Source: an archaeon
Lineage (GTDB): Archaea; Asgardarchaeota; Thorarchaeia; Thorarchaeales; Thorarchaeaceae
Length of the DNA: 32,000 bases
Assembly (NCBI GenBank): GCA_024275415.1
Contig: JAJRZD010000081.1
Coordinates: forward strand, 16,215-48,214
Reading direction: 5' to 3'
In this document: positions 1 through 22,771 of the stretch, piece by piece
Position numbering within the stretch: position 1 is the stretch's first letter
Layout: every line of letters begins with the position of its first letter
The notes under the pieces: generated by a model
What the model saw: the letters and a program-made list of their open reading frames with translations, nothing else
Database searches by the model: none
Told to the model about the DNA's origin: nothing
Position numbers and translations under genes: made by a program

Positions 1-1461
1 AATCTCTTGTTCGACGATCATCAATTCATACGAGTATTCGATGATTGAATCCTTTGACCAGAACCCTGAGAATGGAGGTATCCCAGCAAGCGCAAGAATG
101 CCAATCCACATGACAGCAAACGTCTTTTTCATGTGCTTTTTCAGACCACCCATTTTCGACACGTACTTCGTGTGGATAGCATGGATGACCCCACCAGAAG
201 CAAGAAAGAGAAGTGCCTTGAACGCACCATGTGAAATGATATGCAAGATACTTGATAGATATGCCTTGTCATATGCGATATGAAGCTCGGTCAGATTCAA
301 GACTTCATGAGCATAAATCCCGTAAAACGCAAGCAGCCCTGCGGCGCCAAGTCCCAACATCATGTAACCTAGTTGACTCAGGGTCGAGAACGCCAGGATC
401 TGCTTTAGCTCGTTCGAGGCGATACCCATAGTTGCAGTCAGCAAAGCTGTGACCGCACCAATAACAGCTACAACGATGAAGAAGAATGTGATCACATCTG
501 CCCCGGAAAGCTGTAGAAGGGATAGTCCGTGCTCTCCACCACCGCCATCTCCTGCTGAAACAGCTTGAGCACTGACTATGGTCAGAAGGAATCGTGCAGT
601 GATGTAGATACCAGCCTTGACCATCGTTGCTGCGTGGATGAGGGCTGAAACTGAGGTTGGACCAGCCATTGCTTCTGGTAGCCATACTTGCAAGGGGGCT
701 TGTCCGGACTTGCCAATCGCTCCCATGAAGATGAGGAGGAATGTAGGAACAAGCATTCCAATCCCAGCCATGACACCCCACCAGTTTTGAAAGTTCTCGG
801 ACATAAGGCTGAAAGAGAAAGTACCTGTGAATGTGAAGAGCAAGAGGATTCCGCCAAGCATGAAAGCATCACCAATCCTTGTGACGATGAATGCTTTCGT
901 ACCAGAATGCGTGTTGTATTGCCCCTCTGTTTCGAACTGGAGAAGAGGGTTCTTGTATTCTATTGGGTCAGGCTCGACCTCCGGTGGATTACGCTTGTCA
1001 TTCCAGAAACCGATGAGTCCATAGGAGCAGAAGCCCATTATCTCCCAGCCGATGAATGCAATGAGAAGGTTATTGCTCAGCACAAGTGTAAGCATTCCTC
1101 CACCAAATGCAAGCATGAGGAAGAAGAATCTGTCGCGGTCCTCTTCATGCGCCATGTATTCGGTGGAGTAGACATAGATGAGAAAACTCAGTGTGCTGGC
1201 AAGTACTGCCATAATAATGGAAAGAGGGTCAAGGAGCATCTCAAAGTTGATGCCAAGATATTCAATCCAGACCCACGAAGTAGTGCCAGTAGGATTGTCT
1301 GCTTCAGCAAGGAGTGACCAGGATAGTACCATAGTGATTCCCATGATAATCGCAGGAGTCCAGTCTCTGAGCTTCTCACTGAATTTTCCAACCACTGGAA
1401 CTAGTAAGGAACCGGCAAGAGGGAGCACCAAGATGAGATAGTAGGGTAAGCCAAATATCAT
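1..1461 (-). CDS. nuoL: Complex I-like antiporter subunit NuoL/MrpA (3'-truncated by window edge; absent from ORF track)
   Basis: Manual translation from ATG at 1461 (GAGGTGA 7 nt upstream): MIFGLPYYLILVLP...LDPLS...WEIMGFCSYGLIGFW...KAFIVTRIGD...GKSGQAPLQVWLPEAMAGPTSVSALIHAATMVKAG...LKQILAFSTLSQLGYM...HGAFKALLFLASG...LAGIPPFSGFWSKDSI. No stop seen before position 1. Confidence 0.95.
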   Translation of the reverse strand, partial: MIFGLPYYLILVLPLAGSLLVPVVGKFSEKLRDWTPAIIMGITMVLSWSLLAEADNPTGTTSWVWIEYLGINFEMLLDPLSIIMAVLASTLSFLIYVYSTEYMAHEEDRDRFFFLMLAFGGGMLTLVLSNNLLIAFIGWEIMGFCSYGLIGFWNDKRNPPEVEPDPIEYKNPLLQFETEGQYNTHSGTKAFIVTRIGDAFMLGGILLLFTFTGTFSFSLMSENFQNWWGVMAGIGMLVPTFLLIFMGAIGKSGQAPLQVWLPEAMAGPTSVSALIHAATMVKAGIYITARFLLTIVSAQAVSAGDGGGGEHGLSLLQLSGADVITFFFIVVAVIGAVTALLTATMGIASNELKQILAFSTLSQLGYMMLGLGAAGLLAFYGIYAHEVLNLTELHIAYDKAYLSSILHIISHGAFKALLFLASGGVIHAIHTKYVSKMGGLKKHMKKTFAVMWIGILALAGIPPFSGFWSKDSIIEYSYELMIVEQEI

Positions 1462-1473
1462 TTCATGATCACC

Positions 1474-3027
1474 TCATGGAGTTGGGGCTTGGAATGGTAT
1501 GATGTTCGCAATTTCACTGACAACCGGCACAATGACATCTAGTGCAACACCCGGGAATATCCCAAAGAATACGATAAGGAATCCCAGAATGATCATCGGG
1601 ACTGTCATGGAACGCGGCCCTTCGACAACATCCGCAAGTTCTTGAGGGTGCGGGCCTAAGAATACCTTCCATAGGAATCTGAGCATGTAGCCTGCACTCA
1701 ATATCGAACTTAGTACAGCCAGTATACTGAGACCCAGCATCAATGGCTGCACAATGGCTTCACTTCCTGGAGGTGCGGCAGCATGGAACCCTCCAACGAA
1801 CATCATCCACTCACTCGCAAATCCAGACAGCGGTGGACTACCTGCAATGCTCATCGCACCGATTGCAGCCATGAATGCCGTAATGGGCATCTTGTTAGAA
1901 AGGCCTCCCATCTCGTCGATGTTACGTAGTCCGGTCTGGTGCATCACTGCTCCAGCAGTCATGAATAGCAAGCCCTTTGAGAATGCGTGGTTTATTAGAT
2001 GGAAGAGACCTCCTGATACGCCATAGACCGAGAAGACACCCAGAGCAAAAAGGACATAGCCCATCTGGCTCACAGATGAATACGCAAGCAATCTCTTGAT
2101 GTCTTTCTGAACGAGTGCCATGAACCCACCGTAGAACATGGTAATTACACCAATCGCAGCAACATATACCGAAAGGTCAAATGCGGCAGAACCGAGGGTA
2201 ATGGTGCCGAACCGTACGAGCGCATATGCGCCAGTTTCAATCATAGCACCTGACAGGAGGACCGAAATGGGCGTAGGAGCCTCAGCATGAACGGGAGGGA
2301 GCCACCAGTGAATCGGGAACACAGCTAGCTTCACCAGAAATCCTGCAGCGAGTAAGATGAATATGATCTTCAATAGCTCCGATGCACCGACATATGACGC
2401 AATCATTCCTTGGATGACTGCCAGCTCGAATGTCGTGGCGCCACTGAGGAAATAGAGAAGACCGAAGCCGATAAGGATACAGACAGCTCCACTCTGAGTG
2501 TATAACCAGAACTTGAGAGCGGTTCGTTTCCGGGTTTCAGGAAGTCCCCAGAACAGAATCAGGAAGTAAGAGGGCACCAGCATGAGTTCCCATGCGATGA
2601 AGAACTCGATGAGGTTTGTCGCAAGGGTGACCCATTGCATACCCATAATGAAAAAGAGCTGGTTTGCAAAGAACGTCGGGCGACTGTGCTCGTGGGATGT
2701 ATAACCCACTGCATAAACAACTGAAAGGAATCCCAGAATGACTACTGCAAAAGTGATTGGGAACGCGATCCCATCGAGCCTGAGACCGAATGCCCCTAAG
2801 ATGTCGGACCATGCAAGGGTCTCTTGAGCAATGTTATACAAGCGCTCTTCGAACATGACACGGTAGAACGGAGGTAGCATCAGAACTACTGCGAGCCCCG
2901 ATACCAACGCAGCAATCTTTCCTGCGCTTTTTTCCAGCCTGCCTCTCATAAGGTAGATGGCAAGAGCTCCAATAAAGAGCACAGCGAGAGATGTGCCCAT
3001 GAATGGAAATTCAAACGCAGTCTGCAT
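1474..3027 (-). CDS. nuoM: Complex I-like antiporter subunit NuoM
   Basis: FFIAWELMLVPSYFLILFWG, KLAVFPIHWWLPPVHAEAPTPISVLLSG, DIKRLLAYSSVSQMG, HAFSKGLLF, AGSPPLSGFASE; multi-TM, 517 aa. Confidence 0.9.
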   Translation of the reverse strand: MQTAFEFPFMGTSLAVLFIGALAIYLMRGRLEKSAGKIAALVSGLAVVLMLPPFYRVMFEERLYNIAQETLAWSDILGAFGLRLDGIAFPITFAVVILGFLSVVYAVGYTSHEHSRPTFFANQLFFIMGMQWVTLATNLIEFFIAWELMLVPSYFLILFWGLPETRKRTALKFWLYTQSGAVCILIGFGLLYFLSGATTFELAVIQGMIASYVGASELLKIIFILLAAGFLVKLAVFPIHWWLPPVHAEAPTPISVLLSGAMIETGAYALVRFGTITLGSAAFDLSVYVAAIGVITMFYGGFMALVQKDIKRLLAYSSVSQMGYVLFALGVFSVYGVSGGLFHLINHAFSKGLLFMTAGAVMHQTGLRNIDEMGGLSNKMPITAFMAAIGAMSIAGSPPLSGFASEWMMFVGGFHAAAPPGSEAIVQPLMLGLSILAVLSSILSAGYMLRFLWKVFLGPHPQELADVVEGPRSMTVPMIILGFLIVFFGIFPGVALDVIVPVVSEIANIIPFQAPTP

Positions 3028-3459
3028 CTAACGAAACCTCCTTCCTCTCCACTCCAAAGGCTCTCTGTCGAGCGTTGTAATCTTTTCAGGGCCATAGATC
3101 AGGTCTTCTCGCTCTCCCTCTGCCATATCGACAATTGGAGTGTGGTAGAGGGCATCGAACCTGCAAGCGTCCACACAGAGCCCACAGAATATACAGCGGG
3201 TATAGTCAAAGTAGAGTGCAGCATCCTTCTCGTACATCTTATCTGCCTTGTCAATTCGGATGGCAAGAACTGGACAGGCACGCACACATTGAGCACAAGC
3301 TGTACAATTCTGACGGACATGTATGTGTCGCCCGCGAGTACGTTCAGGGTAGGGTCTATCCTCGAAGGGGTAGAGGCTAGTAAACGGTCTCTTGAAGATT
3401 TGTCGGAAGATATGCTTCAGTATGGTAAAGACTTCGCCAAGATTTCTAAGGAATCCCAT
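3028..3459 (-). CDS. nuoI: Complex I-like 2x[4Fe-4S] subunit NuoI
   Basis: FTSLYPFE...RGRH; CTACAQCVRACP and CIFCGLCVDACR ferredoxin motifs; located between nuoH and nuoM. Confidence 0.92.
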   Translation of the reverse strand: MGFLRNLGEVFTILKHIFRQIFKRPFTSLYPFEDRPYPERTRGRHIHVRQNCTACAQCVRACPVLAIRIDKADKMYEKDAALYFDYTRCIFCGLCVDACRFDALYHTPIVDMAEGEREDLIYGPEKITTLDREPLEWRGRRFR

Positions 3460-3465
3460 CTCATT

Positions 3466-4608
3466 CTAACCTCCCACAAGCAAAAGTGCCAGTCCAGGCA
3501 CATAGACAATGGCAAGCATTGCTATTATGACATTCAACATTGATAACGGCAGCAGGTACTTCCAGCAGTATCTCACAATTTGATCCTGCCTGAGCCTGTG
3601 AAACGATGAGCTCACTGTCACAAAGACAAAGAGCATGATCAAGAACTTGATGATGAAGTTCACTGCCCCAGGTAGCCATGGAACCCCATAGAAGCCTCCA
3701 AAGAAGAAGGTCACCATGAGGGCTGAATAGAGCATCTGCTCAGCAAACTCCGCAAAATAGGTAAGTGTGAAATAGACTCCTGAGAATTCCGTGCGCCACC
3801 CAAAGATGATCTCAGAATCTGCAACAGGAGCATCGAATGGGAACACACCTACAGAGATTATAGATGCAGTCAAGAACGTCGCGAAGTTGATTGGTAGCAG
3901 AAAGATGAACCAGACCGAACTTTGAGCTAGGGCAATACCCATGATGCTGAGAGACCCAGCCAGCATAGCAGGACCCACTGACGACATGATCATCGGAATT
4001 TCAGCGGCAAATTGATTGTTAGCAGCCCTGAATCCTCCAATAAGTGAGTATTTGGATCCACTTATCCATCCGGCAAGCAAAGCTATCACAGGTACTGCTG
4101 CAAGGAATGCGAATACGAGCACCAGACTGACAGATAGATCTGCAATGAACCAGACCGTGTCCCAAGGAATGAAAGCGAATGGAACCAACACCACCACTAA
4201 GAGCAGAGATGGCAAGAACCGGTATGCCCACCGATGCGCTTTGTCTGGAATGATGATCTCCTTGGATATCAACTTGATCGCATCAGCAAAAAGCTGGACT
4301 CCACCGTACTTGCCCATGTGCATCGGGCCCCGACGCATCTGGATACGTCCCCAGAGCTTTCGTGTGAACCAGACAAAAAAGATGAGCCCCATCACAACGA
4401 AGATGAGCCCTGGAAATATGACAGCTTTGAACAAGAAGAAGATATTGTCGATGACAAGCGTCCATAGAAGATTGATCACGACCCATAGCCAATCATATAT
4501 CCCATAGATGATTCCTCTAATCACCTCGATGATATTGAATACCCATTGTGGGAGTCCCCTTAGCCAATCTACGAACCATTCGAATTGCAAGACTGCGCCT
4601 CCTGTCAT
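3466..4608 (-). CDS. nuoH: Complex I-like membrane subunit NuoH with N-terminal extension
   Basis: RKLWGRIQMRRGP, GGVQLFADAIKLISKE, PFDAPVADSEIIFGWRTEFSG, FHRLRQDQIVRYCWKYLLPLS. Start chosen at the ATG overlapping the nuoD stop (TAATG); a TTG at 4590 after GGAGG is an alternative. Confidence 0.92.
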   Translation of the reverse strand: MTGGAVLQFEWFVDWLRGLPQWVFNIIEVIRGIIYGIYDWLWVVINLLWTLVIDNIFFLFKAVIFPGLIFVVMGLIFFVWFTRKLWGRIQMRRGPMHMGKYGGVQLFADAIKLISKEIIIPDKAHRWAYRFLPSLLLVVVLVPFAFIPWDTVWFIADLSVSLVLVFAFLAAVPVIALLAGWISGSKYSLIGGFRAANNQFAAEIPMIMSSVGPAMLAGSLSIMGIALAQSSVWFIFLLPINFATFLTASIISVGVFPFDAPVADSEIIFGWRTEFSGVYFTLTYFAEFAEQMLYSALMVTFFFGGFYGVPWLPGAVNFIIKFLIMLFVFVTVSSSFHRLRQDQIVRYCWKYLLPLSMLNVIIAMLAIVYVPGLALLLVGG

Positions 4609-5744
4609 TATCTGTCCCACCACCCCGGATACGGGTCTAGACTTCCGAATATCACAATGAAGTCAGCAAACCTCGCACTTGGAACCAAGTGCTTCAATGC
4701 ATAATATGAATGGAAACACGGCCCACGGATCTTGGCTCGATAAGGAGTCTGCGCCTTTTCCAATGTCTTTAACCAAAGCGAAGTGATGCCTCTTGCGCCC
4801 TCGACTCGGCCATATGCCTCTCCTTCTGGCAAGCGGTTAGCCTTGGCGCGTGCCTTGGGGTCAATAATCGGACCATCGGGAATCTGTGGAATAAGCTGTT
4901 TAATTATGTCCACTGAGGTCTTCACTTCGTTGAATCGCTGAACCATCCTGTCATAGGCATCACTCTCTCCTGGGTGGTCGGGGTGCTCTAGGATCGGAAC
5001 CTCCCAGTCCACCATATCATATGCCAGATTCGGATCCGGCTGATCCTTTCTCAAATCCATTGGGATGCCACATGCCTTGATGTTGGGTCCTGAAAGACCC
5101 CAGCGCAAAGCCTCTTTAGCCGAATATTGTCCTACGCCTTCAGTACGCATCCTGAAAAGTGGGCTTTTCATCAACATATCCTCGAATTTTGGCATGTTAT
5201 ATTCTAGCACTTGAATGGCTTTCTCCAGTTTTGCCAGAACTTTCTCAGTAAAGTCGAATCGTAATCCTCCAGGAGTGCTAAAATGCGGCGAGTGTCGCAC
5301 ACCTGTGAGTTCCTCGAAGGTATCCAGAAAGAACTCCCTGTCAACCCAGGGCCAGAGTGTCATCGCAAAGAATCCCATTTCAGCAGACAGCTGTCCCCAC
5401 CAGAATTGATAGGAATGTATCCTGCTGGCCTCCATCATGATCGTCCGGAGCACCTTTGCTCGTTCAGGTACTACTAACCCGGCGATCTGCTCTACAGCGC
5501 TGATATATGGGTACTCCGCAAGGAAAGCTTCGAGCATACATAATCGCTCAAGGATTGGTGAACCCTGTCGAAAGTTACGATACTCGAGGCATTTCTCTGC
5601 AGACCTGTGAAAATACCCGGCATGAGGATCACACTCCACTATGAAGTCGCCTACAAGTTTCAACTTGGTGGCCCAGCCATGGGCAGATACGTGCTGAGGT
5701 CCAAACCAGACCTCCACTGTTTCATCAAGGATGTCAGGTGTCAT
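4608..5744 (-). CDS. nuoD: Complex I-like subunit NuoD (hydrogenase-large-subunit fold without a NiFe site)
   Basis: FGPQHVSAHG, GYFHRSAEK, ELTGVRHSPHFSTPGG, EGARG, C-terminal GSLDPYPGWWDR. Only one of the four NiFe-ligand Cys positions is present (ERLCMLE). Confidence 0.9.
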   Translation of the reverse strand: MTPDILDETVEVWFGPQHVSAHGWATKLKLVGDFIVECDPHAGYFHRSAEKCLEYRNFRQGSPILERLCMLEAFLAEYPYISAVEQIAGLVVPERAKVLRTIMMEASRIHSYQFWWGQLSAEMGFFAMTLWPWVDREFFLDTFEELTGVRHSPHFSTPGGLRFDFTEKVLAKLEKAIQVLEYNMPKFEDMLMKSPLFRMRTEGVGQYSAKEALRWGLSGPNIKACGIPMDLRKDQPDPNLAYDMVDWEVPILEHPDHPGESDAYDRMVQRFNEVKTSVDIIKQLIPQIPDGPIIDPKARAKANRLPEGEAYGRVEGARGITSLWLKTLEKAQTPYRAKIRGPCFHSYYALKHLVPSARFADFIVIFGSLDPYPGWWDR

Positions 5745-6247
5745 TTCTTAGCACCTCCTTCAGGTCTGGGTTTCCTGACTGGAAGACCGGTTTCTGCTTG
5801 TCTGCTGCGGTCGGTCTGGAAGCTCTTACGCATCGGGTATTTGCCTACGAGCTCGTCCGGTAAAAGAAGCGGACGCAGGTCAGGATGACCCGTGAACATA
5901 ATTCCGAACATCTCGTGTGTTTCACGTTCGTGCCATTCTAAACCAGAAAAGATGTCACAGCATGCTGGGAGTGAAGGGTTCGAGCCCTCCAAGTTCACCT
6001 TGAGTTGGATGATCATCCGGTCTTTGTGCGACCAGAACATGTAGTTGACCTGGTACTTGTCATCACCCAGATCAACACCGAACGCGGATTCGGGAATAAC
6101 CTCTGGGAAAGTTTCATCGACCAAAGTGATGACATCGCGAATTATGTCCTTGCCCACTGTGAACTCGATGTGATGTTCGTTTATCGTCTTGACATCTATG
6201 TCAGGAAATTTGGTGGTGAATGTCCGCACAATCCCTGCTGCATCCAT
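5741..6247 (-). CDS. nuoC: Complex I-like subunit NuoC
   Basis: WHERETHEMFGIMFTGHPDLRPLLLP...YPMRKSF; its stop overlaps the nuoD start. Confidence 0.93.
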   Translation of the reverse strand: MDAAGIVRTFTTKFPDIDVKTINEHHIEFTVGKDIIRDVITLVDETFPEVIPESAFGVDLGDDKYQVNYMFWSHKDRMIIQLKVNLEGSNPSLPACCDIFSGLEWHERETHEMFGIMFTGHPDLRPLLLPDELVGKYPMRKSFQTDRSRQAETGLPVRKPRPEGGAKK

Positions 6248-6248
6248 C

Positions 6249-6560
6249 TCATTTCACCTCTGCTTGTACTGGACTGCCAAGATCCACATGTCCGTACCTG
6301 CGGTTGTACAATAGCATAAGAACCAAAGCAAGGGCTGTGTGTGCAGCTGCTATTGCGATCACTAGGATGACAAGTCCTTGAGGAGTGTAGGAGAAGACTC
6401 CGCCGTAGACTGCAAAAGCTACAAGGGCGATGTTCACACCATTCCCCATTATCTCAGCCCCGATAAGGATACGAATCAGGTTCCTTTTCACTATCATGCC
6501 ATAAGCACCTAGACCGATGAGCATGAATGCCACAACCAGATACCAACTCAGTGGAACCAT
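6249..6560 (-). CDS. nuoK: Complex I-like subunit NuoK
   Basis: GAYGMIVKRNLIRILIGAEIMGNGVN...AIAAAHTALAL; 3 TM, 103 aa. His stands where the second conserved Glu usually is (AAE). Confidence 0.9.
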   Translation of the reverse strand: MVPLSWYLVVAFMLIGLGAYGMIVKRNLIRILIGAEIMGNGVNIALVAFAVYGGVFSYTPQGLVILVIAIAAAHTALALVLMLLYNRRYGHVDLGSPVQAEVK

Positions 6561-7180
6561 CAGTTCGTTGCCTCCTCTGTCTTCTCATCATCGGGCATTG
6601 GGGCCGCCTCGACTCCGAACTCGGCTGTGATGTCCTTCAAGGTCTCTGCCTTTTCCATCTTCATCAGAGCGAGTGTCCCAACCAGTGTAGTAAGGATGAT
6701 CAAAGCAATAATTTGAACGTAGAGCCCGTGGGATTGCCAGAGCCATTCCGCCAGTCCTTGTAGACTCTGGGCATATTCCGGCATTCCTTGAGGGATGTCT
6801 GTTGACCATGGAAATACCAAAGCAAGCCCTCCAGACATTGCCATGACGAAAGCAGAAAGAAGCAGCCCTATTTTCCGTGCACGCGGCGAGGGAAGCACTT
6901 CCAGTGTCCGATCCTGTGCTCTGGGAAGAAGCAACACTCCAAATATGATCAATGCACTGATACCACCAGTGTATACCGCTATCTGCATCCCTGCTATGAA
7001 AGGCGCTTCAAGTAATAGGAAAAGTCCTGCAACGAAGCTTGCCATGACGCCAAAGAAGAAAGCAGCATATACTATGTCCTTGTGCTCAAGGGCCAGATAT
7101 CCAAATACCAAGATAATGCCAGCCAATAGGAGGAATTCGACTTGCTCGAATAGCTGCAGGAGTGGGTCTAGTTCTTGCAT
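6560..7180 (-). CDS. nuoJ: Complex I-like subunit NuoJ
   Basis: LEAPFIAGMQIAVYTGGISALIIFGVLL signature; five hydrophobic segments. Confidence 0.9.
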   Translation of the reverse strand: MQELDPLLQLFEQVEFLLLAGIILVFGYLALEHKDIVYAAFFFGVMASFVAGLFLLLEAPFIAGMQIAVYTGGISALIIFGVLLLPRAQDRTLEVLPSPRARKIGLLLSAFVMAMSGGLALVFPWSTDIPQGMPEYAQSLQGLAEWLWQSHGLYVQIIALIILTTLVGTLALMKMEKAETLKDITAEFGVEAAPMPDDEKTEEATN

Positions 7181-7191
7181 CTCATTTCACC

Positions 7192-7623
7192 TCAATGCAT
7201 GTGCTTAGTTTTCTGGGCTTTCTTGGCTTCATGATAGAGTTCCAGTGTTTCTTTCCCGTCCAGTGCTGCCTGCGGCAGAATCCTCATTGAAAAGCTGATG
7301 GCTCCCATGATGAGAGCAATGAAGATCAGTGCCTGCCAGAGAATAAGTGCCTCTAGCCTTAGGGTCGAGGCAGAGAGAAGCCAGAGAAAGGCGCCCATCA
7401 CGTCGATCACCACGAACAATATCGTATAGACGATGTAGTTGTAAGGGTAGGAAATACGGGCAGGGCCGATTGGATCCTCACCACATTCGTACGGGGATGT
7501 CTTTGAAGAGTTCTGAAGGACATGCGGTCGTAACACCCAAGAAGCCAGAAGCATCACAATGACAAGAACCACAGCCAGAAGGGCCCACACAACTACAGGA
7601 ATAAAATCCACAAATAGCCTCAT
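7192..7623 (-). CDS. nuoA: Complex I-like subunit NuoA
   Basis: KTSPYECGEDPIG...YTILFVVIDV. Start moved to ATG 7623, preceded by GAGGAGG. Confidence 0.92.
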   Translation of the reverse strand: MRLFVDFIPVVVWALLAVVLVIVMLLASWVLRPHVLQNSSKTSPYECGEDPIGPARISYPYNYIVYTILFVVIDVMGAFLWLLSASTLRLEALILWQALIFIALIMGAISFSMRILPQAALDGKETLELYHEAKKAQKTKHMH

Positions 7624-7707
7624 AATCCAGATTCCTCCTCGCTCAGATGAAGGGGTTGATAGCATCTGCGAATAACCTTGGCAATCCTAGACAGTTTGGA
7701 ATAGGTG

Positions 7708-7715: not shown

Positions 7716-8116
7716 CGACTGGACAGGACTATGACACAAGGTCGAACGACACGCGATGCTGACCACACAGAATCGTTCCCAGTGCCGTTTCTGGGAGGAC
7801 AAAACTCTGGTGTCCGGATTTGCCCCGATTACAATTAACGGTAGGTAACTCATCGCTTGACCAGTGAAATCAATGATCGACGTTTGAAGCATTATTAGTC
7901 CTTCTCTTAATGTTTCCATGTGATCGATTGCGAGCGACAGGAATAGTAACCAAATGATAAACTTCTCGTTCATCTTTGGAACAAGCCCTGTAGCTTGAGA
8001 ATGGCGACATGCACTGCCCTATTAAAAACTCTTCGCAGGACGGGGTCTTTCTCGGAGAAGTTAAATATCCCAGTTATTCCTTACAGGCTTGGTTCAAAAC
8101 CGTTAGGAGAAAGATA

Positions 8117-8467
8117 ATGTTGAATCGAGACGAAGGAGGTTTCTTCTACTATGTTGCCCTACTGGCTGGAATGTTTCTCATCGGCACGTACCTATGGCAT
8201 ATCCTAGTCACACCTACTGGATATCAAGGATTCCATTTCATCATGTATGCCACTGGGTTCCTGTTACCTGTTTCAGCATTTGGATTTGCATTCGCAAAAG
8301 CAAGAACTTCGCGGGTGGGGTTAACTGTCATCACAGGGGTAATTGCAGGCATTCATTTCTTCTTAGAAATCACACTATTTGGGTCATTCGTGGGTGTGAT
8401 ACTGTTCGCGTGGATGTCGTTTGGCTTACTCCTCGCTTTTGCAGCTTTCAGTTGGTTGCTTGAGTGA
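8117..8467 (+). CDS. Small hypothetical membrane protein (~4 TM)
   Basis: ATG 8117 after AGGAG; 116 aa, almost entirely hydrophobic. The track's 8009 start adds a non-hydrophobic leader. Confidence 0.75.
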   Translation: MLNRDEGGFFYYVALLAGMFLIGTYLWHILVTPTGYQGFHFIMYATGFLLPVSAFGFAFAKARTSRVGLTVITGVIAGIHFFLEITLFGSFVGVILFAWMSFGLLLAFAAFSWLLE

Positions 8468-8488: not shown

Positions 8489-8980
8489 TTACTCTTTTTC
8501 AGTTTCTACCGTTGTAGCTTCTAATTCAAATTCGACATCAGGAGCAACAGGACCATAATGGAGCTTGCTCACATCCATTATCCCTTCGGTGTATGCTTCG
8601 TCATCACGCGTCATCTTCAACATTGCTGCACCACCAGATGCGACGATAGCAGAACCGATTCCCCACGAGGCATACCAGATCGTGTCAGCTACGTCCCATT
8701 GGAATGACACAAGAGTCAGGATAATGAACATGACTGACACAAAAGATGCGATAGATAGAAACAGGTTCTTCATCTTCCCTCGATCGGGTACGAAATAGCC
8801 AAGTAGCAACACCGACAACAGAATGGGGCCACCAAGTAGAAAGGCCAGATTGGAAGTTTCGAAGGCCGCTGACCCTGTGGTCATCTTGAAGATGAACTCA
8901 ACAAAATATGCGGTCATCATCACGACTCCAATCCAGAACATGCAATACCTATCTGCGTCCTCATTCAACCTGCGATTCAT
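8489..8980 (-). CDS. Hypothetical 4-TM membrane protein with acidic C-tail
   Basis: Four hydrophobic helices. Start overlaps the stop of the upstream fusion gene (ATGA at 8980-8977). Confidence 0.8.
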   Translation of the reverse strand: MNRRLNEDADRYCMFWIGVVMMTAYFVEFIFKMTTGSAAFETSNLAFLLGGPILLSVLLLGYFVPDRGKMKNLFLSIASFVSVMFIILTLVSFQWDVADTIWYASWGIGSAIVASGGAAMLKMTRDDEAYTEGIMDVSKLHYGPVAPDVEFELEATTVETEKE

Positions 8981-10932
8981 TGGATCATCCCCATTGCATC
9001 TTGATTCTCGTATTTCCTCTGCCAGTGCGTTGTACCGGCACGAATCTTGTTCTGAAGGATAAGATGGGCTCTAATGAAATCTACGGGCTTGGGGGGGCAT
9101 CCTGGCAGGTATACATCTACAGGCACGACCTTCTCAGGGGGAGTCATCAAGGAATATCCATCCCAGAACAACCCGCCACTGGCCGCACATTGCCCGAAGC
9201 TTATGACGTATTTTGGTTCGGGCATCTGTTCATAGATACGGCGTAGTCGGGGAGCCATCTTCTTCGTGAGGGAGCCCGCAATCCACAGCACATCTGCCTG
9301 CCTTGGACCAAATAGAGGAAGCATTCCAAAGCGCTCTATGTCCCAACGGGATGCTACTGCTGCTGCACCGTCCACCATGCAACACCCAATACCGTACTGT
9401 ACTGGCCACGGACTATGTGCACGGCCCCATCTCAGCATCCATTTGAGTGGCGGAAGGTTCTGCAACCATTTCAACAGGATAGGTGCAATTCGCCCAAACC
9501 CATTTCGGAAGAGATCATAGCCAATCCACATGAAGTACTTCCCAATTTTAAGGATGAACGGTAACCAGTAGGCAAAGATCTTCCCTGGATTAGCAATCTC
9601 GTTTTTATCGAGTTTCAATTTCGCAGCCCGTATCTTTGCAAGTCTGCGCTCGCCAAAGTATTGCGGAGCATAGTTTGCAAACCAAATCCCAATCCCATGG
9701 GGGTGTCCACCGTGTCGTTGTGCAATCTTGAATATGACAAAACTCTGGGACCATGAAAGCATGAAGAATCTGCGCCGCTCGTCTTCAAGGAAGTAGCCCA
9801 TGATTGTGACACCGTTCTTTGAGGTCACATACCCGTCAATGCCGGCCCTTGCTGACGCCTGCTCGAACTGAAAGTCAGAAAGCACAGCCTCCAGATTCTC
9901 TAATGGAGCAAAGGCCTGCCCGACGACCAATGTGGGCCCTGCCTTCTTCACGCGCATCGGATAGAATCGATCCTTCCATTCGTGGGCAGCAACATGCTCA
10001 TCATATACTGTGCCATGATATTGTTCTGTGATGTTGCGAACGACCTCAAAGCCTTCTTCAATCTCCTCCTCTGTCCCTTCGTAAGCGATGAGGACAGTAC
10101 CATGATGCACTGGGAATGGAAACGGCTCATCTGAGTCCCAAATCTGCTTCTTGAGGTCAGTGTATTTGGACTCCTCGAACTTGATCGTATAGGGTAGGGG
10201 TCCTTCTTCAATCATCTTCTCCATCGCAAGAACCATTTGATAGTTCTCAGGAAAGCTTACCACGATAGGCTTGACTGGCATAAGGGGCTTGACCCTAAGG
10301 CGAATCTTCGTAATGATGCCCAAGATGCCCTCGGTATCGCAAAAGAGGTCTGTGTCAGTACTGGTTATTATCTTGCCATCAGGCAGAACCACTTCGAAGC
10401 TTAGAACATTGTCATTGATCTTCCCGTATTTCAAGGAGCCAATCCCATCGCCTCCTTGAGCCACCCATCCACCGATAGTGGCTGACAACCCAGACGACGG
10501 ATAGCATCGGAGATCCAGTCCAACTCGGTTCAGTTCGAATTGAAGATTTGCCCAGGAAATGCCTGGTTCCACAAGAACCGTCTGGTTCGCTTCGTCAATT
10601 TCGAGAACATTATCCATCCTGCGCATATCAACAATGACCCCTCCCTTACGAGGGATCGCGCCTCCATACCCACTTGTTCCCGCACCTCTGGGAATGATAG
10701 GAATTTTCTCTTCGTTGGCAATCCTGTATAAAGATTGTATTTCTTCAGGAGTTTCTGGTTGAACAGCTGCATCAGGGTTGTTATTCATCATGTAGCCGAC
10801 CTGTTTGGGTAGTGCACCTACATCAGTAGAGAAAATGACTAACTCATGCTTTGATGTGATCAGCCGGTCGCCAAAAACGTGTGATAGTTTCTCGAATTGC
10901 TTTTTCTTGAGTCCCATCGGAGATGTCTCCAT
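8977..10932 (-). CDS. nuoB: Fusion: FAD-linked oxidoreductase (FAD_binding_4/FAD-oxidase_C, GlcD-like) + complex I subunit NuoB
   Basis: N-part has PRGAGTSGYGGAIP, VEPGI, ATIGGWVAQGG.G..SLKYG, EGILGIIT and ends at NPGKIF. C-part has WGRAHSPWPVQYGIGCC, PRQAD, MPEPKYVISFGQCAASGG, VDVYLPGCPP. Single uninterrupted frame; start could be ATG 10917. Confidence 0.93.
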   Translation of the reverse strand: METSPMGLKKKQFEKLSHVFGDRLITSKHELVIFSTDVGALPKQVGYMMNNNPDAAVQPETPEEIQSLYRIANEEKIPIIPRGAGTSGYGGAIPRKGGVIVDMRRMDNVLEIDEANQTVLVEPGISWANLQFELNRVGLDLRCYPSSGLSATIGGWVAQGGDGIGSLKYGKINDNVLSFEVVLPDGKIITSTDTDLFCDTEGILGIITKIRLRVKPLMPVKPIVVSFPENYQMVLAMEKMIEEGPLPYTIKFEESKYTDLKKQIWDSDEPFPFPVHHGTVLIAYEGTEEEIEEGFEVVRNITEQYHGTVYDEHVAAHEWKDRFYPMRVKKAGPTLVVGQAFAPLENLEAVLSDFQFEQASARAGIDGYVTSKNGVTIMGYFLEDERRRFFMLSWSQSFVIFKIAQRHGGHPHGIGIWFANYAPQYFGERRLAKIRAAKLKLDKNEIANPGKIFAYWLPFILKIGKYFMWIGYDLFRNGFGRIAPILLKWLQNLPPLKWMLRWGRAHSPWPVQYGIGCCMVDGAAAVASRWDIERFGMLPLFGPRQADVLWIAGSLTKKMAPRLRRIYEQMPEPKYVISFGQCAASGGLFWDGYSLMTPPEKVVPVDVYLPGCPPKPVDFIRAHLILQNKIRAGTTHWQRKYENQDAMGMIQ

Positions 10933-11118: not shown

Positions 11119-12342
11119 ATGGAATTTCCTAGTCTCAAAGCATACGGACTCCAAGATATGCCTTTTACATGCGCCCAATGCAGCTTTTGCCAGGTTGGCA
11201 ATGGAGCGTGTCCCACATACAAAGTGAAACGCCTTGATAGCTACTCCGGTAAGGGGAAGATGGTGATTGCCCGTAACCTGTTGCAAGGACGCCTTAGACC
11301 ATCTGAGGGGCTCGAAGGGCTAAGGGATGCTATCTTCAATTGTACACTGTGTGGTGGGTGTGAAGAAATATGTCAGGTAGATATCCCCTTTGTGAAGATC
11401 TATCAGCTGTTACGACACGAGTTCCTAAAGAGAGACATGTGGCCTCATGGACTTATGATGGCTAGGGACACTCTTCTAAAGACAAACAACATCCAGGGAC
11501 AATCCCAGATGGATCGCATCGAAGGCTGGTCCTATTGGCATCCTGATGAAGATATGGTACTAGACCTCCAAGGAAAGAAAGCCAAGACCGCTTTCTTCGT
11601 TGGATGTACCTCGTCATTCAAAGGAGTGTCAATTCAGGCAACCATCGCTTCCACTCTCGTTTATGACAAGGCCGGAGTCGATTTTACACTTCTGGGCGAG
11701 GAGGAATGGTGCTGTGGCGCACCGATGATAATGACGGGAGATTTTGACACTGCTAGGAAGTATGCCATGCACAACATCGAGAAGTTCCATGAGCTCGGTG
11801 TTGAGAGAGTTGTCACAAATTGCCCAGGCTGTTACAAAATGTGGGCTCACGAATATCACGAGTTCTTGGATATTGACCACGGTCTTGAGATTCTGTACGG
11901 TGCCGAATTTCTGATGGAAATCCTTGATGAGAACAAGCTGGATTTCAATACCCCCTTGGATAAGGGCATCACGTTCCATGATGGATGTGATGCTGGTAGA
12001 AATGCTGGATTCTATGAGGAACCTCGGAAGGTCTTGGAGTACATTCCAGGAATCGAGTTCGAGGAGTTACCGCACAACAAGGCCAATAGTTACTGCTGTG
12101 GTTCAGGGGGCGTCCTTAGAGCTGTAGACAATGACTTTGCAGTCAAGATAAACGAGCTTAAGGTGAAGGACATTGAAGCCACAAATGCTGAAATCGTCGT
12201 ATCACACTGTCCCTCCTGCGTTGACTTCATGCATAACCAATTGCCCGGTGCGGGCTCAAGCAAGACCTCGAAGGATCTAGTCGTACTGGTTGCACAGGCA
12301 TTGGGACTAGAGTGGGAAGGTCTTGAGGAAATCTATGGCTAG
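11119..12342 (+). CDS. HdrD/GlcF/GlpC-like Fe-S oxidoreductase (2x[4Fe-4S] + two CCG domains)
   Basis: CAQCSFC...CP, CTLCGGCEEIC; FVGC...WCCG...CPGC and HDGC...YCCG...CPSC. Start moved to ATG 11119 after GAGGT. Confidence 0.9.
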   Translation: MEFPSLKAYGLQDMPFTCAQCSFCQVGNGACPTYKVKRLDSYSGKGKMVIARNLLQGRLRPSEGLEGLRDAIFNCTLCGGCEEICQVDIPFVKIYQLLRHEFLKRDMWPHGLMMARDTLLKTNNIQGQSQMDRIEGWSYWHPDEDMVLDLQGKKAKTAFFVGCTSSFKGVSIQATIASTLVYDKAGVDFTLLGEEEWCCGAPMIMTGDFDTARKYAMHNIEKFHELGVERVVTNCPGCYKMWAHEYHEFLDIDHGLEILYGAEFLMEILDENKLDFNTPLDKGITFHDGCDAGRNAGFYEEPRKVLEYIPGIEFEELPHNKANSYCCGSGGVLRAVDNDFAVKINELKVKDIEATNAEIVVSHCPSCVDFMHNQLPGAGSSKTSKDLVVLVAQALGLEWEGLEEIYG

Positions 12343-12407
12343 TACTGGACAGGCACACACACCGGCAGTAGGTAATCAAATAAGCCAGTGTGCATGTTAT
12401 AGAAATA

Positions 12408-13661
12408 ATGCCATTGCGCAAGGATGAACTAGAGGATAGGTGGCTATACGAGCAGATTGTCGAAAGAGTGCCTCCGTTCAAATGGTTACCGCCCACATTC
12501 GATGTGATGACTCAGCTGTTGTTAGTCGAAGCTGGGGGGATTCTCGCATTCCTGTACTTCCGTTTGCCAAATGAGGCTATCTTCTTAGGCACGTTGGCGA
12601 TACTCTATACGGTCGTCTGGTCCGCTGGCTGTCTCTATGTCATCCCTTTTTTGAGGAAACTACGGGATCCTACGAACGAAGAGGAACGCCGTGTCCTTAC
12701 AAAGTACAAACACGACCTTCTTGAGGATAAGATGCTCGAGCTGATTGGAAGCATCGCATGTTACATCGCAATCACGTCGTATCTGTTATATGACCAAGAA
12801 TTGCTTCACCGGTTCCTTGGTCAGGGCTACGGAAATCTCATTCTTTATGGACTCCTGCTAATCCTCTCATGGGATATTGCATACAGGTTATGGCTTTCTT
12901 TCTTCACGGCATTCTCATCGGCACGCAGATCCATAAGCTTAGCGAGAGCAGCAAGAAAGAGAAGAGGTCTCAAATACACAGCTTATTCAGAAGTGCAAAC
13001 GCTAAAATCACTAGATATGATCAATCTCTACTGGGCCGCTTCTGCAGTCCTGCTAGTCCCAATTGCCATTTCCACTGAGATATTGCTCTATTCAATCGTT
13101 GCATTCTTTCTTTCCATTGTGATCCTGTCATTCGTGAGCCTGCTGGCGATGGAAACGATACCCTGGTTCCCACCGGATGTCGAGGACATCCTCTTGAGAG
13201 AAAGGTTTGCCTATGTGGCTGCATACAACAAGTCAACCCTTCACACAACTCCAGTGATCTTCGTCTACGACGGGAAATACATCTATTTCGCAATCAGCGT
13301 GAAATCAGCAAAATACCGGTTGATAAAGAAGAACAATAGGATTGCAGTTCTTGTAGATATGAGGGACGCCAAGAACGCAATGAATAACAGGTCAATACTA
13401 ATGCGTGGGAAAGGACTTGTCCTCGGACAGGTCAGCCCCTTCGGACTTATCCGGTTGTTCCTGTACGGCCTGTGGATGTTGAGAGTAAGATCCCTGTTCT
13501 GGAAAAAATACCCCATGTATATGCGATATTATAAAGAAGAGGCTGACTCAATCCCGCTGGCATGGCAGGATAAGCCCTTCGTGTCACGGGTTCTCGTAAG
13601 GCTCCAAGTAGAGAAAGCGACATACTGGAGAGAGGCGTTGCCGACATTCCTAAGGGTGTGA
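12408..13661 (+). CDS. Membrane protein with C-terminal PNPOx-like (split-barrel flavin/F420/heme-binding) domain
   Basis: Several N-terminal TM helices, then FAYVAA...HTTPVIFVYDGKYIYF..SVKSAKYRLIKKNNRIAVLVD. Start ATG 12408 (track GTG 12390). Confidence 0.7.
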   Translation: MPLRKDELEDRWLYEQIVERVPPFKWLPPTFDVMTQLLLVEAGGILAFLYFRLPNEAIFLGTLAILYTVVWSAGCLYVIPFLRKLRDPTNEEERRVLTKYKHDLLEDKMLELIGSIACYIAITSYLLYDQELLHRFLGQGYGNLILYGLLLILSWDIAYRLWLSFFTAFSSARRSISLARAARKRRGLKYTAYSEVQTLKSLDMINLYWAASAVLLVPIAISTEILLYSIVAFFLSIVILSFVSLLAMETIPWFPPDVEDILLRERFAYVAAYNKSTLHTTPVIFVYDGKYIYFAISVKSAKYRLIKKNNRIAVLVDMRDAKNAMNNRSILMRGKGLVLGQVSPFGLIRLFLYGLWMLRVRSLFWKKYPMYMRYYKEEADSIPLAWQDKPFVSRVLVRLQVEKATYWREALPTFLRV

Positions 13662-13723
13662 TCTAATGAGTCTAACAATAAGAGTCGTTGGAGGGATATA
13701 AGAACGTGACAGCAAAGCATTGT

Positions 13724-14173
13724 ATGATGCGACTGCATACAGGAGCCAGAAAGATATTGCGTGAAGGGTTCTTCGCGTACTTCACAACTGGGAATCCAAG
13801 ATCGTTCCCACACATCACAACAATGTTCTATATCTGGGACGAGGAATCATGTACATTCTATGTGATCACATCTGAATCGACAAAGAAGGTGAAGAATATC
13901 CAGCAGAACCCAAATGTCGCCCTCACCATTGATGAGCGTGACCCGCTGTCGCCTGCTGGTAACTGTGGTGTCTTGGTTCGTGGAAAGGCAAGAGTAATCC
14001 CCATCGAGGAGATGGGTGACATCCTCATGAACAAATACTGGGCAAAATACCTTAACGTCCTCGGACAGGGTTTTCCTATGGGCTCACGCTTGGCGATAGA
14101 AATCACTCCTCGTGTGATTCACTATTGGAGCGGAATACACTTCTTCAAGTGGGTTGACCACAGACACGCATGA
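13724..14173 (+). CDS. PNPOx-like (pyridoxamine 5'-phosphate oxidase family) split-barrel protein
   Basis: PHITTMFYIWD...FYVITSESTKKVKNIQQNPNVALTID...GVLVRGKARVI. Confidence 0.85.
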   Translation: MMRLHTGARKILREGFFAYFTTGNPRSFPHITTMFYIWDEESCTFYVITSESTKKVKNIQQNPNVALTIDERDPLSPAGNCGVLVRGKARVIPIEEMGDILMNKYWAKYLNVLGQGFPMGSRLAIEITPRVIHYWSGIHFFKWVDHRHA

Positions 14174-14343
14174 CATGAACAATATCGTACATAGACTGAA
14201 TCGTTATTCGAAAGGCCTTACTATAGACGCTTACTTGTAGATAGTGAAACGGGAGCCTGAGATTCACTTGATACAATCCTGCTGCCCCCCTCAGAGCTCA
14301 CCAATCGCTGCATCATAAGACGACAGCATATCTTAGATATGTG

Positions 14344-15390
14344 TTACATTGCCGGAGGAGGTCGCGTCAGGTTACGGTACTGGATAGCACAAATCACGAC
14401 TAGGACTATTCCCGCAATGGCCAGATAGATCAGATTTGATGTAAAACCCTTGAGGATATACCCTGCTGTGAGGCTCAGTGTAATGAGAAGATGTAGCATG
14501 ATAGTCGCGGCGTTGGCGGGAACCAACCGATTCGGAGCCTCATACTCTCGCATCATGATTCGTACTCCCAAATAGCCCAACGGAATTAACGTCAGAGCGA
14601 GGAGCGATTCAAACGCAATCAGCCCACTCACGACACAAACGACAATCCATACGAACACAGCTGCTATAAGAACAGCATAGCCCTTCGCAGCTTTCTCGCG
14701 TCCAAGCCGCACCACAACCGTTCTTTTTCCAGAATCCCTGTCTGCTGCATAGTCCTGAAATTCATTGATATAGAGAATCCCAGCAACAAGAAGTGCTGTA
14801 GGTATCGACGCAAGTATTGGCTCAAGAAGGATGTTCTGAGCTTGAACGTAGTAGGATCCGAGTACCATCAGAACGCCAAAATTAAGGCCGATAAATATCT
14901 CCCCAATGCCACGCTTCACCAATCTGAACGGAGGTGCGGAGTAGAACAGCCCAGACGCAGCACCTATCATGCCAAAAACAAGGATCAGGATGCCTCGAGT
15001 CAGAGCGAGATATACACCTATCAAACCAGTGATTGCAAAGAAGACCATAGATTCAGCCAGCACCTCACGAGGTGTTAGAAGACCAAGCTGAATCATCCGA
15101 CTCCCACCAGTGAAAGGACGGACGAATTCCGTGTTTATATCATCCGAACCCGTGTTCTCTGGAGTGTGGTCGAAATAATCGTTCGACACATTGGCTGCAA
15201 TGTGAAGAAATGCTCCTGCAATGACCGTCAAGAGAAAGACATCAAGCAGGAAAACCCCAGTCGTAGCCCAAGCTATCGCTGTGCCCAGAAAGACAGGTGA
15301 GATAGACGCGGTCAAGAATGGTGCTCTCAATTCCAGAAAGAACGCCTTCTTCTTAGATATTTGCATTGGCTCCTGAATGATTTCCGTCAT
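14344..15390 (-). CDS. menA: 1,4-dihydroxy-2-naphthoate polyprenyltransferase (UbiA family)
   Basis: LRAPFLTAS, ANVSNDYFD, FTGGSRMIQ, YSAPPFRL, INEFQDYAADRDSGKRTVVVRLG. Confidence 0.85.
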   Translation of the reverse strand: MTEIIQEPMQISKKKAFFLELRAPFLTASISPVFLGTAIAWATTGVFLLDVFLLTVIAGAFLHIAANVSNDYFDHTPENTGSDDINTEFVRPFTGGSRMIQLGLLTPREVLAESMVFFAITGLIGVYLALTRGILILVFGMIGAASGLFYSAPPFRLVKRGIGEIFIGLNFGVLMVLGSYYVQAQNILLEPILASIPTALLVAGILYINEFQDYAADRDSGKRTVVVRLGREKAAKGYAVLIAAVFVWIVVCVVSGLIAFESLLALTLIPLGYLGVRIMMREYEAPNRLVPANAATIMLHLLITLSLTAGYILKGFTSNLIYLAIAGIVLVVICAIQYRNLTRPPPAM

Positions 15391-15541
15391 CAGCTCTATG
15401 CCTCAATATGCAGTTTCGTAGATAGTCCATTCAAAACCTTTGCGGTGAGTTTTCAGAATTCCTTAAATGTAGAAAGTGTATCTGCGGAGCAACGCCAATA
15501 CGAAGGCAAACCTTTTGAACTGATACGAGAAGGTCGCAAAC

Positions 15542-16567
15542 ATGGATACATTGGATTACCTTTCCGACAGACTCGACAAAACGTCGGACAGCATTTTTCT
15601 CACAGACCTTCTCAAGAATGAAGATATCAAATCACGATTAGAGATGATCAATTCAGAGATAGATATCCATCTAGGAAAGGATGGAGAACCAAAGATTCTG
15701 TACGAAACGGCAAAGCATCTCCTCAAGGCAGGCGGGAAGAGACTACGTTCGTTGTTAGTAGTGCTCTGTTGTGAAGCGGTCGGAGGTGACATCACCAAGG
15801 CAGTTCCATTCTCTGTAGCCATCGAGCTGGCACAAACGGCCAGTCTTATCCACGATGATGTGATTGATGAGGACACACTCCGCAGAGGTGTGCGGTCAAC
15901 ACACGAACAGTTCGGCCATAAGATGGCAATTTTGGCTGGAGACCTCCTTGTGGCTCAGGCTGTCAAGATGATTGGAAGTCTTGGCACACCAGAGATAATT
16001 GTACAGATTGCAGAGGAGGGAATCAGGATGTGCGAGGGGGAGGCTGCAGATATACTCCTCAATGCTGACAACCCGAATGCCATGACAATCGAAAACTATC
16101 TTGAGATGATTCAGAAGAAGACTGTATCATTCATCAAGGCTGCAACGTCGGTGGGTGCTTCCATCGGCAAGGGCACGAAGGAGCAAATCAGCTCGTTACG
16201 CAGGTATGGAGAGAATCTGGGATTCGCATTCCAGATCCGTGATGATGTGCTCAACATAATCTCATCGTCTGACATCTCAGGAAAGGATGAATACAGTGAC
16301 CTCCTTTCGAAAAGATGCACATTCCCTTTGGTTCACGCTTTGGACAAATCATCGCCAGAGGATAGAGAGCGGTGTTTGCAGGCACTATCTGAGGGTGACA
16401 TGTCTGTCGCCCTTCATCTCGTTGAAAGGACTCGGGCAATCCCAGCTTCCATCGAGAAAACTACAGAGTACATCAGAAAGGCAAAGGCCACATTGAAAGA
16501 GCACGATTTTGTGAACGCACATCTTCTAGAACAGGTAGCCGATTTCGTTCTCCAGAGACTGCACTAG
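15542..16567 (+). CDS. trans-Polyprenyl diphosphate synthase, probably medium/long-chain
   Basis: GGKRLR, ASLIHDDVIDEDTLRRG (FARM), AILAGDLL, KKT, FQIRDDVL. Confidence 0.9.
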   Translation: MDTLDYLSDRLDKTSDSIFLTDLLKNEDIKSRLEMINSEIDIHLGKDGEPKILYETAKHLLKAGGKRLRSLLVVLCCEAVGGDITKAVPFSVAIELAQTASLIHDDVIDEDTLRRGVRSTHEQFGHKMAILAGDLLVAQAVKMIGSLGTPEIIVQIAEEGIRMCEGEAADILLNADNPNAMTIENYLEMIQKKTVSFIKAATSVGASIGKGTKEQISSLRRYGENLGFAFQIRDDVLNIISSSDISGKDEYSDLLSKRCTFPLVHALDKSSPEDRERCLQALSEGDMSVALHLVERTRAIPASIEKTTEYIRKAKATLKEHDFVNAHLLEQVADFVLQRLH

Positions 16568-16568
16568 A

Positions 16569-17681: not shown

Positions 17682-17883
17682 TATAACATCTCCTGCCCCA
17701 GCTCACTTATAGAAATAATGTGTTTGGATACGCTAAATTTACTGTTCGTGTTGTTTGTTGCGGTTGTTTCAGAATGCACAAGGAAACCAACTGAGTGTTC
17801 CATAAAGCTTATTATTTACATTTCGTAACTACTCGTCAATCTGGGTCTTGAGTTTTGAACATCGGCAAGACTAGGAACGCTAT

Positions 17884-19629: not shown

Positions 19630-19632
19630 ATA

Positions 19633-20010: not shown

Positions 20011-20020
20011 GGTGGTTGCT

Positions 20021-21499: not shown

Positions 21500-21502
21500 A
21501 TC

Positions 21503-22720: not shown

Positions 22721-22771
22721 ATATGGATTGTTTCAATCGCAGTTCTCCTGCGTCCACTGATAGATTTGGGA

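Follow-up and report, generated by a model that had tools for sequence, protein, structure and literature searches.

The window examined here is a stretch of 32,000 nucleotides from a genome of the Asgard family Thorarchaeaceae (contig JAJRZD010000081.1), and its central element is an open reading frame at positions 4608-5744 of the minus strand. This gene encodes a NuoD-like protein of 378 amino acids, the subunit that forms the acceptor pocket of a complex I-like pump; read on the forward strand, these coordinates contain many stop codons. The gene belongs to a compact minus-strand operon which, read 5' to 3', encodes a fusion of a flavin adenine dinucleotide (FAD)-dependent oxidase to NuoB, a small membrane protein, NuoA, J, K, C, D, H and I, an antiporter-like subunit, NuoL and two further antiporter-like subunits, and in which no NuoEFG was found. 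The pocket of this NuoD lacks the tyrosine with which complex I ligates quinone and carries another tyrosine at a position that holds a metal ligand in [NiFe] hydrogenases.

Membership of the Pfam family Complex1_49kDa (PF00346) is clear for the NuoD-like subunit, at 207.7 bits against a cut-off of 24, and no second PF00346 protein was found in the genome. The narrower NCBIfam models all stay under their cut-offs, with the NuoD equivalog models NF004739 and TIGR01962 at 319.3 (cut-off 360) and 267.8 bits (cut-off 459), and the FpoD model NF040602 at 241.5 bits (cut-off 600). Among PDB chains searched with phmmer, the best match is MbsL (211.6 bits), with Nqo4 at 194.3 bits. A monomer model made with AlphaFold2 has a mean predicted local distance difference test (pLDDT) score of 93.6, and Foldseek aligns it to complex I NuoD and to MbsL alike with a template modelling (TM) score of about 0.9, which confirms the fold and does not separate complex I from MBS. 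The original prediction, which gave no strand for the gene, had called the active site intermediate between hydrogenase and quinone reductase. As a description this is fair: NuoD finds its best PDB match in MbsL, whereas its partners NuoB and NuoH belong clearly to the complex I type. The protein is classified, on its sequence, as the NuoD subunit of a complex I-like ion pump restricted to Thorarchaeaceae.

The residues of the pocket were read by direct translation and assigned to columns by phmmer alignment with PDB chains and by a MAFFT alignment of 126 homologues, two independent approaches that agree. The β1-β2 loop carries the motif QHVSAHG (His18, His22; 5676-5696, minus strand, as for all pocket elements), in which His22 corresponds to the quinone-ligating His38 of Nqo4. 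The L1 position carries ERLCMLE (Arg67, Cys69, Met70, Glu72; 5529-5549), and Glu122 (5379-5381) falls in the column of Nqo4 Asp139, which is the acidic residue paired with the loop His. The L2 position carries the C-terminal motif DPYPGWWDR (Tyr372, Trp375, Trp376; 4611-4637), followed by the stop codon, and the codon of Tyr372 is TAT. The motifs first reported at L1 and L2, with one Cys of four, a Met at the Tyr position, a retained His pair and two Trp near the C-terminus, are therefore all borne out.

Within these columns, Cys69 stands at the first L1 Cys of hydrogenases, which is Cys85 in MbsL and Asp86 in Nqo4. Met70 follows that Cys, where MbsL has Val and Nqo4 has Tyr87, and Glu72 stands at the second L1 Cys, which is Glu in MbsL and His89 in Nqo4. 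At L2, Tyr372 occupies the position of the first Cys (MbsL Cys385, Nqo4 Val403) and Trp375 that of the second (Asp in MbsL, Asp406 in Nqo4). Neither His22, which has no counterpart in MbsL, nor Glu122 corresponds to a residue with a metal-ligand role in hydrogenases. The column of Tyr372 and Nqo4 Val403 is presumably also that of V407, the piericidin-resistance site of Rhodobacter capsulatus NuoD.

Conservation of these residues was assessed in 59 orthologues, 71-100% identical and all from metagenome-assembled genomes of Thor-type Asgard archaea (hereafter the Thor clade). The RLCM and PGWWDR motifs, whose conservation had been singled out for checking, are invariant or nearly so, and the pattern is thus no accident of a single sequence. 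His18, His22, Arg67, Cys69 and Glu72 are present in every orthologue, and Met70 is Met in 57, with Leu in the other two, such that the quinone-ligating Tyr of the R-x-D-Y motif is not present. Tyr372 and Trp376 are found in all 58 orthologues having those positions, and Trp375 in 57 of these 58. Glu122, a conservative Asp-to-Glu change relative to Nqo4, is likewise kept in 58 of the 58 sequences with that position, and the loop His and acidic partner that form the proton-donor dyad of complex I are thereby retained as His22 and Glu122. Only one of the four NiFe ligand positions, that of Cys69, is occupied by Cys in any of the 59 orthologues. The pocket is atypical, as originally proposed, in that none of the characterised relatives examined (Nqo4, NdhH, MbsL and Methanosarcina FpoD) has this set of residues.

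The sole NuoB of the operon is the C-terminal domain of the fusion protein (8977-10917, minus strand; 646 amino acids from Met6), behind FAD_binding_4 and FAD-oxidase_C domains. It provides a tandem Cys pair and two further Cys as ligands for the N2 cluster (GCC, GQC and PGCPP, with GIGCCM from residue 514), an arrangement typical of quinone-reducing complex I and NDH (PMC8165549). NuoH (3466-4623; Pfam NADHdh, 281.8 bits), the membrane subunit whose tunnel leads to the pocket, is also of the complex I type, scoring 167 bits with Escherichia coli NuoH versus 49.6 with MbsM and 46.8 with MbhM. The remaining subunits, again on the minus strand, are NuoI (3028-3459; Pfam Fer4 families), a ferredoxin-like protein with two [4Fe-4S] clusters at which the electron donor probably docks, NuoC (5741-6247; Pfam Complex1_30kDa, 96.1 bits), NuoA (7192-7665; Pfam Oxidored_q4), and NuoJ (6560-7180) and NuoK (6249-6560), both named by synteny and by tblastn in relatives. 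Four Proton_antipo_M genes complete the operon. These are the extra antiporter-like subunit at 1474-3027, NuoL, which is long (~773 amino acids) and of which only the N-terminal part (1-1461) lies within the window, and two more that follow NuoL beyond the window start, the set covering positions 1-3027 of the window and 12296-16376 of locus L003. With an extra NuoM-like subunit among them, the four antiporter-like subunits are predicted to give the complex a 2M-type complex I architecture, as reportedly defined by Chadwick and colleagues in 2018. The same architecture is encoded in the outgroup genomes G025, G112 and G026 described below.

Comparison with characterised systems places these features in context. 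Complex I NuoD (Nqo4 or the 49-kDa subunit; Thermus thermophilus 4HEA, E. coli 7P7J) shares with the Thor protein not only the fold and the loop His with its acidic partner, but also Arg67, at Nqo4 Arg84, and the C-terminal D-x-x-x-G-x-x-D-R frame; the two complexes have in common a tandem-Cys N2 site and complex I-type NuoH, A, J and K. The Thor protein differs in having Met for Tyr87, Cys for Asp86, Tyr for Val403, and Trp-Trp for the Asp/Glu-Val pair before the final Asp-Arg, and its complex in the lack of NuoEFG and the fusion of NuoB to a flavoenzyme. MbsL of Pyrococcus furiosus (6U8Y) shares R-[IL]-C-x-x-E at L1 and the absence of Tyr87, but has a second vestigial Cys, C385, at the position of Tyr372 and no loop His, and the MBS complex has a Mrp-like membrane arm and a proximal cluster with only three Cys ligands in its small subunit, MbsJ (PMC7684303). 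FpoD of the Methanosarcina F420H2:methanophenazine oxidoreductase (cluster P0194) belongs to an archaeal 11-subunit-type complex that also lacks NuoEFG and has a vestigial first L1 Cys. However, it reads R-I-C-Y, keeps both Tyr87 and the L2 Cys, and has Pro in place of the loop His, the opposite pattern to that of the Thor protein (PMC4758237).

Beyond the 71-100% identity of the orthologues, the next homologues drop to ~35%. Just two closer steps, at 51% and 40% identity, emerged when 1.8 billion cluster representatives were searched. Among 301 Asgard genomes, this NuoD type occurs in most genera of the family to which the window belongs and is absent from four genera, and the nearest outgroups are G025 (two copies, ~50%), G112 (same gene order, 40%) and G026 (38%). 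Written as the three L1 columns (first Cys, Tyr87 column, second Cys), the two L2 columns (third and fourth Cys) and the loop His, hydrogenases show C-G-C, C-C and a variable loop position. MbsL shows C-V-E and C-D and Methanosarcina FpoD C-Y-V and C-E, both without the His; the His is present in canonical NuoD (D-Y-x and V-[D/E]), G112 and G026 (C-F-[D/E] and C-D), the G025 clade (S-M-E and Y-E) and the Thor clade (C-M-E and Y-W). The sister clade (G025, P0177; 50% identical) therefore keeps the equivalents of Met70 and Tyr372, with Ser for Cys69 and no Trp pair. Since they are common to both clades, Met70 and Tyr372 are taken to define a wider NuoD type, of which the Trp375/Trp376 pair, as judged from the alignments, is specific to the Thor clade. 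G025 also encodes a second, isolated S-M-E/Y-E copy (L028 10003-11091; G025:C31), around which a 10-kb radius contains no further nuo genes.

The Thor and G025 clades are joined with 100/100 support in all four trees, and the pair is sister to G112 and G026; support for this placement is 98/87 in a careful mixture-model tree and 93, 93 and 86 in the three faster ones. All four share the unusual gene order J-K-(B)-C-D-H-I-antiporter-L-antiporter-antiporter, which supports the grouping independently of the trees, and all have tandem-Cys N2 ligation in NuoB. The two-Cys proteins of G112 and G026 (P0178), whose complexes also have four antiporter-like subunits, differ from the Thor protein in their Phe at the Tyr87 column and in the L2 motif D-V-C-P-A-D; they have two Cys and no Tyr. 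Their NuoB is free-standing within the operon, and no MenA was found in G112. Descent from such a two-Cys, Phe-bearing ancestor, in which the L2 Cys would have become Tyr by one transition (TGT to TAT), is favoured, though not proven. Short tree searches were unreliable on these data, as a constrained tree was 37.7 log-likelihood units better than a quick free tree, and an approximately unbiased (AU) test did not reject a grouping of Thor and G025 with the Tyr-bearing NuoD/Fpo lineage (10.3 log-likelihood units worse, p = 0.294). The backbone of the tree is ambiguous by this test, and no claim is therefore made that the lineage never had Tyr87. Because G025 combines the Met/Tyr pocket with a free-standing NuoB of 186 amino acids, and NuoB is also free in G112 and G026, remodelling of the pocket came before the joining of NuoB to the flavoenzyme. 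Only the Thor clade has the fusion, which occurs there alongside the Trp pair. An unrelated metagenomic protein from JGI (P0207), which groups with MBS-like forms, independently has R-I-C-M-Y-E at L1 and D-I-Y-P-G at L2, and the replacement of Cys by Tyr next to Met may therefore be a recurrent solution.

Cys69 is best seen as a remnant of the NiFe site, because it is Ser in the sister clade and its MBS homologue is dispensable for catalysis; a role as catalytic thiol was rejected on the same grounds (PMC7684303). It had been stated that thermococcal MBS keeps one Cys per motif for polysulfide reduction. The conservation of these residues holds, but their role in the reaction does not, as mutagenesis shows them to be unneeded (PMC7684303). 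Tyr372, for its part, is a probable substitute for Tyr87, because the L2 Cys position adjoins the L1 position in every NiFe site. A nearby Tyr that takes the place of the missing one, an observation named in the original prediction as one that would overturn it, is thus probably present, at the L2 Cys position and kept in a sister clade of 50% identity.

Divergent from the fusion gene lies a plus-strand gene (11119-12342, with the start taken at MEFPSL) for an HdrD/GlcF-like iron-sulfur protein with Fer4_8 and two CCG domains, which is probably the partner of the FAD domain. It also adjoins the fusion gene in G236 and G164, and the divergent pairing occurs in three genera. The fusion itself is universal in the Thor clade and was not found outside it; it occurs in ~45 protein clusters, of which the named ones are nearly all labelled Thorarchaeota. 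The best PDB matches of its FAD domain are the D-lactate dehydrogenase LDHD and LctD, but the alignment shows no conservation of the His/Glu metal ligands of LDHD. Between the fusion gene and nuoA are genes for two small multi-pass membrane proteins without a Pfam family (8489-8980, minus strand, and 8009-8467, plus strand), kept at the same position in three other Thor genera by tblastn, which may be extra subunits or anchors. On the far side of the HdrD-like gene, before MenA, are plus-strand genes for a membrane protein with DUF7530 and PNPOx-like domains (12390-13661), also adjacent in G236, and for a separate PNPOx-like flavoprotein (13688-14173). Downstream of the operon, beyond the window start, is a membrane-anchored c-type cytochrome of 473 amino acids with seven CxxCH motifs and terminal hydrophobic segments, accompanied by a CcsA-like cytochrome c assembly protein (L003 9799-11220 and 5057-7111, both minus strand). 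In G164 a 7-haem cytochrome directly follows the FAD-NuoB gene. This cytochrome may be a quinol-oxidising or extracellular electron-transfer module. Elsewhere in the window, a Ras/Roc-family small GTPase of 173 amino acids (30526-31047, minus strand) is typical of the eukaryote-like signature proteins of Asgard archaea.

Genes for prenylquinone synthesis are found close to the operon. A MenA-type 1,4-dihydroxy-2-naphthoate (DHNA) polyprenyltransferase is encoded at 14344-15390 on the minus strand (TIGR00751, 113.4 bits, cut-off 102.15), 8.6 kb from the NuoD gene and 3.4 kb past the fusion gene that heads the operon, and its ten best NCBIfam matches are all MenA or related prenyltransferase models. 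Adjoining it is a polyprenyl diphosphate synthase gene (15542-16567, plus strand; Pfam polyprenyl_synt, 220.8 bits), and MenG/UbiE is present above cut-off elsewhere in the genome. The region 14344-23962 is a probable prenylquinone and 2-hydroxyacid island, which contains in addition a geranylgeranyl reductase, two further GlcD-like FAD oxidases flanking an open reading frame of 125 codons, and a second GlcF-like CCG protein. Of 55 Thorarchaeaceae genomes that carry this NuoD type, 48 encode MenA; for those with a completeness of 90% or more, the figure is 27 of 28, and none of the seven that lack it exceeds 90% completeness. MenA shares a contig with the operon in more than 20 genomes, at a distance of 8-35 kb. 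These observations make a non-quinone acceptor less likely than was first implied.

The most likely function of the complex is that of a ferredoxin-driven naphthoquinone reductase with a relocated tyrosine, a reading that is judged to have about an even chance of being correct. A low-potential donor, probably ferredoxin, would deliver electrons at NuoI, from which they would pass through the two NuoI clusters to the N2 cluster, of the complex I type, that the NuoB domain carries. The next step would be reduction of a membrane naphthoquinone made by MenG and by the MenA encoded nearby. This acceptor is favoured because both enzymes are encoded and MenA lies near the operon in many relatives. 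Further support comes from the retained His22/Glu122 dyad, whose His is lacking in MBS and FpoD, from the conservation of Met70 and Tyr372 in the sister clade, and from the complex I character of NuoB and NuoH. The head group would be held between Tyr372 and His22, the latter fixed by Glu122 in the manner of complex I. Having replaced the former L2 Cys on the C-terminal loop, Tyr372 would take over the hydrogen-bonding and proton-donating role of the missing Tyr87. Met70 and Cys69 would merely line the pocket, to which Trp375 and Trp376 would add an aromatic wall in the Thor clade. The pump has four antiporter-like subunits and no NuoEFG head, and the 7-haem cytochrome near the operon could re-oxidise the quinol.

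Several observations weigh against this assignment. MenA is also present in Thor genera without this NuoD type (g4, g12 and g14) and so is not specific to the complex, and its linkage to the operon within a single family is not independent evidence. In the genome, which is 92.9% complete, no MqnA/D or MenD was found, MenB was found only below cut-off, and no head-group pathway or NrfD-type quinol oxidase was found. Complex I-like complexes of Asgard archaea modelled by others are, moreover, predicted to exclude quinone (bioRxiv 10.1101/2024.07.04.601786), and the FAD-NuoB fusion with its HdrD-like partner could carry electrons by another route.

Such a route is the basis of the alternative that survives best, which is possible but on balance unlikely: no diffusible quinone would be involved, the pocket would be closed or re-used, and electrons would pass between N2 and the fused flavoenzyme with its HdrD-like partner. 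The reverse could also apply, with substrate oxidation reducing ferredoxin at the expense of the ion gradient. The universal occurrence of the fusion in the clade, its restriction to it, and the divergent pairing with the HdrD/GlcF-like gene in three genera are consistent with this proposal, as are the absence of Tyr87, the presence of two bulky Trp in exactly the fusion-bearing clade, the predicted exclusion of quinone from the modelled Asgard complexes, and the failure to find the DHNA pathway in the genome. A precedent is also available in the headless Fpo-like complex proposed to act with HdrD in Methanomassiliicoccales, likewise a complex I-like pump with an HdrD-type CCG protein (PMC6019823). 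In that system, however, HdrD is separate, the acceptor is the CoM-CoB heterodisulfide and quinone genes play no part, whereas the Thor genome examined here has a NuoB-FAD fusion together with MenA and MenG, the former linked to the operon. Additionally, the change to Met70 and Tyr372 predates the fusion, as the sister clade has it with a free NuoB, and the Thor complex retains His22, Glu122, the tandem-Cys N2 site and a NuoH that is full-length and of the complex I type. The flavoenzyme is moreover joined to the N-terminus of NuoB through a linker of ~45 residues, which would be expected to place the flavin far from N2. The more specific proposal that the Trp pair closes the pocket, that no pool quinone enters it, and that pumping is coupled to electron exchange between ferredoxin and the flavoenzyme/HdrD-like pair is slightly more doubtful still. 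If true, this exchange would add a new class of acceptor to those of the complex I superfamily, beside quinone, protons and polysulfide.

Far less probable than either is an MBS-like reductase of sulfane sulfur (polysulfide), with catalysis at the proximal iron-sulfur cluster. Although MbsL is the best PDB match of NuoD and shares its R-[IL]-C-x-x-E motif, and although the best tree puts the clade beside two-Cys forms, the chemistry of MBS needs the three-Cys proximal cluster of MbsJ (PMC7684303), in place of which the Thor complex has four N2 ligands including the tandem Cys. The loop His, absent in MBS, is kept here, the second MBS Cys is missing, and NuoH and the membrane arm are of the complex I and not the Mrp/MBS type. 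Finally, group 4 [NiFe] hydrogenase activity with reduction of protons, which has been put forward for other complex I-like complexes of Asgard archaea, is scarcely credible and is refuted at the sequence level, in agreement with the original prediction, since despite weak N-terminal similarity to PF00374 and other NiFe hydrogenases encoded in the genome, for which maturation genes are presumably present, only one of four metal-ligand Cys is kept in all 59 orthologues and the PF00374 match is below cut-off (23.5 versus 25.8 bits).

Published studies of complex I-like enzymes in Asgard archaea (including bioRxiv 10.1101/2024.07.04.601786) deal with forms in which the NiFe site is retained, and a headless Nuo complex passing electrons to menaquinone has been proposed for the Asgard classes Sifarchaeia and Jordarchaeia (PMC9723677). 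In the literature on Thorarchaeota with NuoD, Nuo/Mbx/Fpo or menaquinone, no description of the residue pattern was found. New in the present analysis are the sister clades, the succession of events, the comparison with a named FpoD, the survey of MenA and MenG, and the limits of the tree.

Few residues in the complex I superfamily are as strongly conserved as Tyr87 of NuoD, on which current models of quinone reduction and coupling are centred. The Thor proteins represent a conserved natural lineage with Met at this position and a Tyr on the opposite wall of the pocket, where a NiFe ligand formerly stood, and they offer a natural experiment on the conversion of a NiFe site to a quinone site. 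The Thor lineage is an abundant Asgard group whose members are generally regarded as fermentative. A pump driven by ferredoxin and linked to MenA and to a multihaem cytochrome would alter the picture of their energy metabolism.

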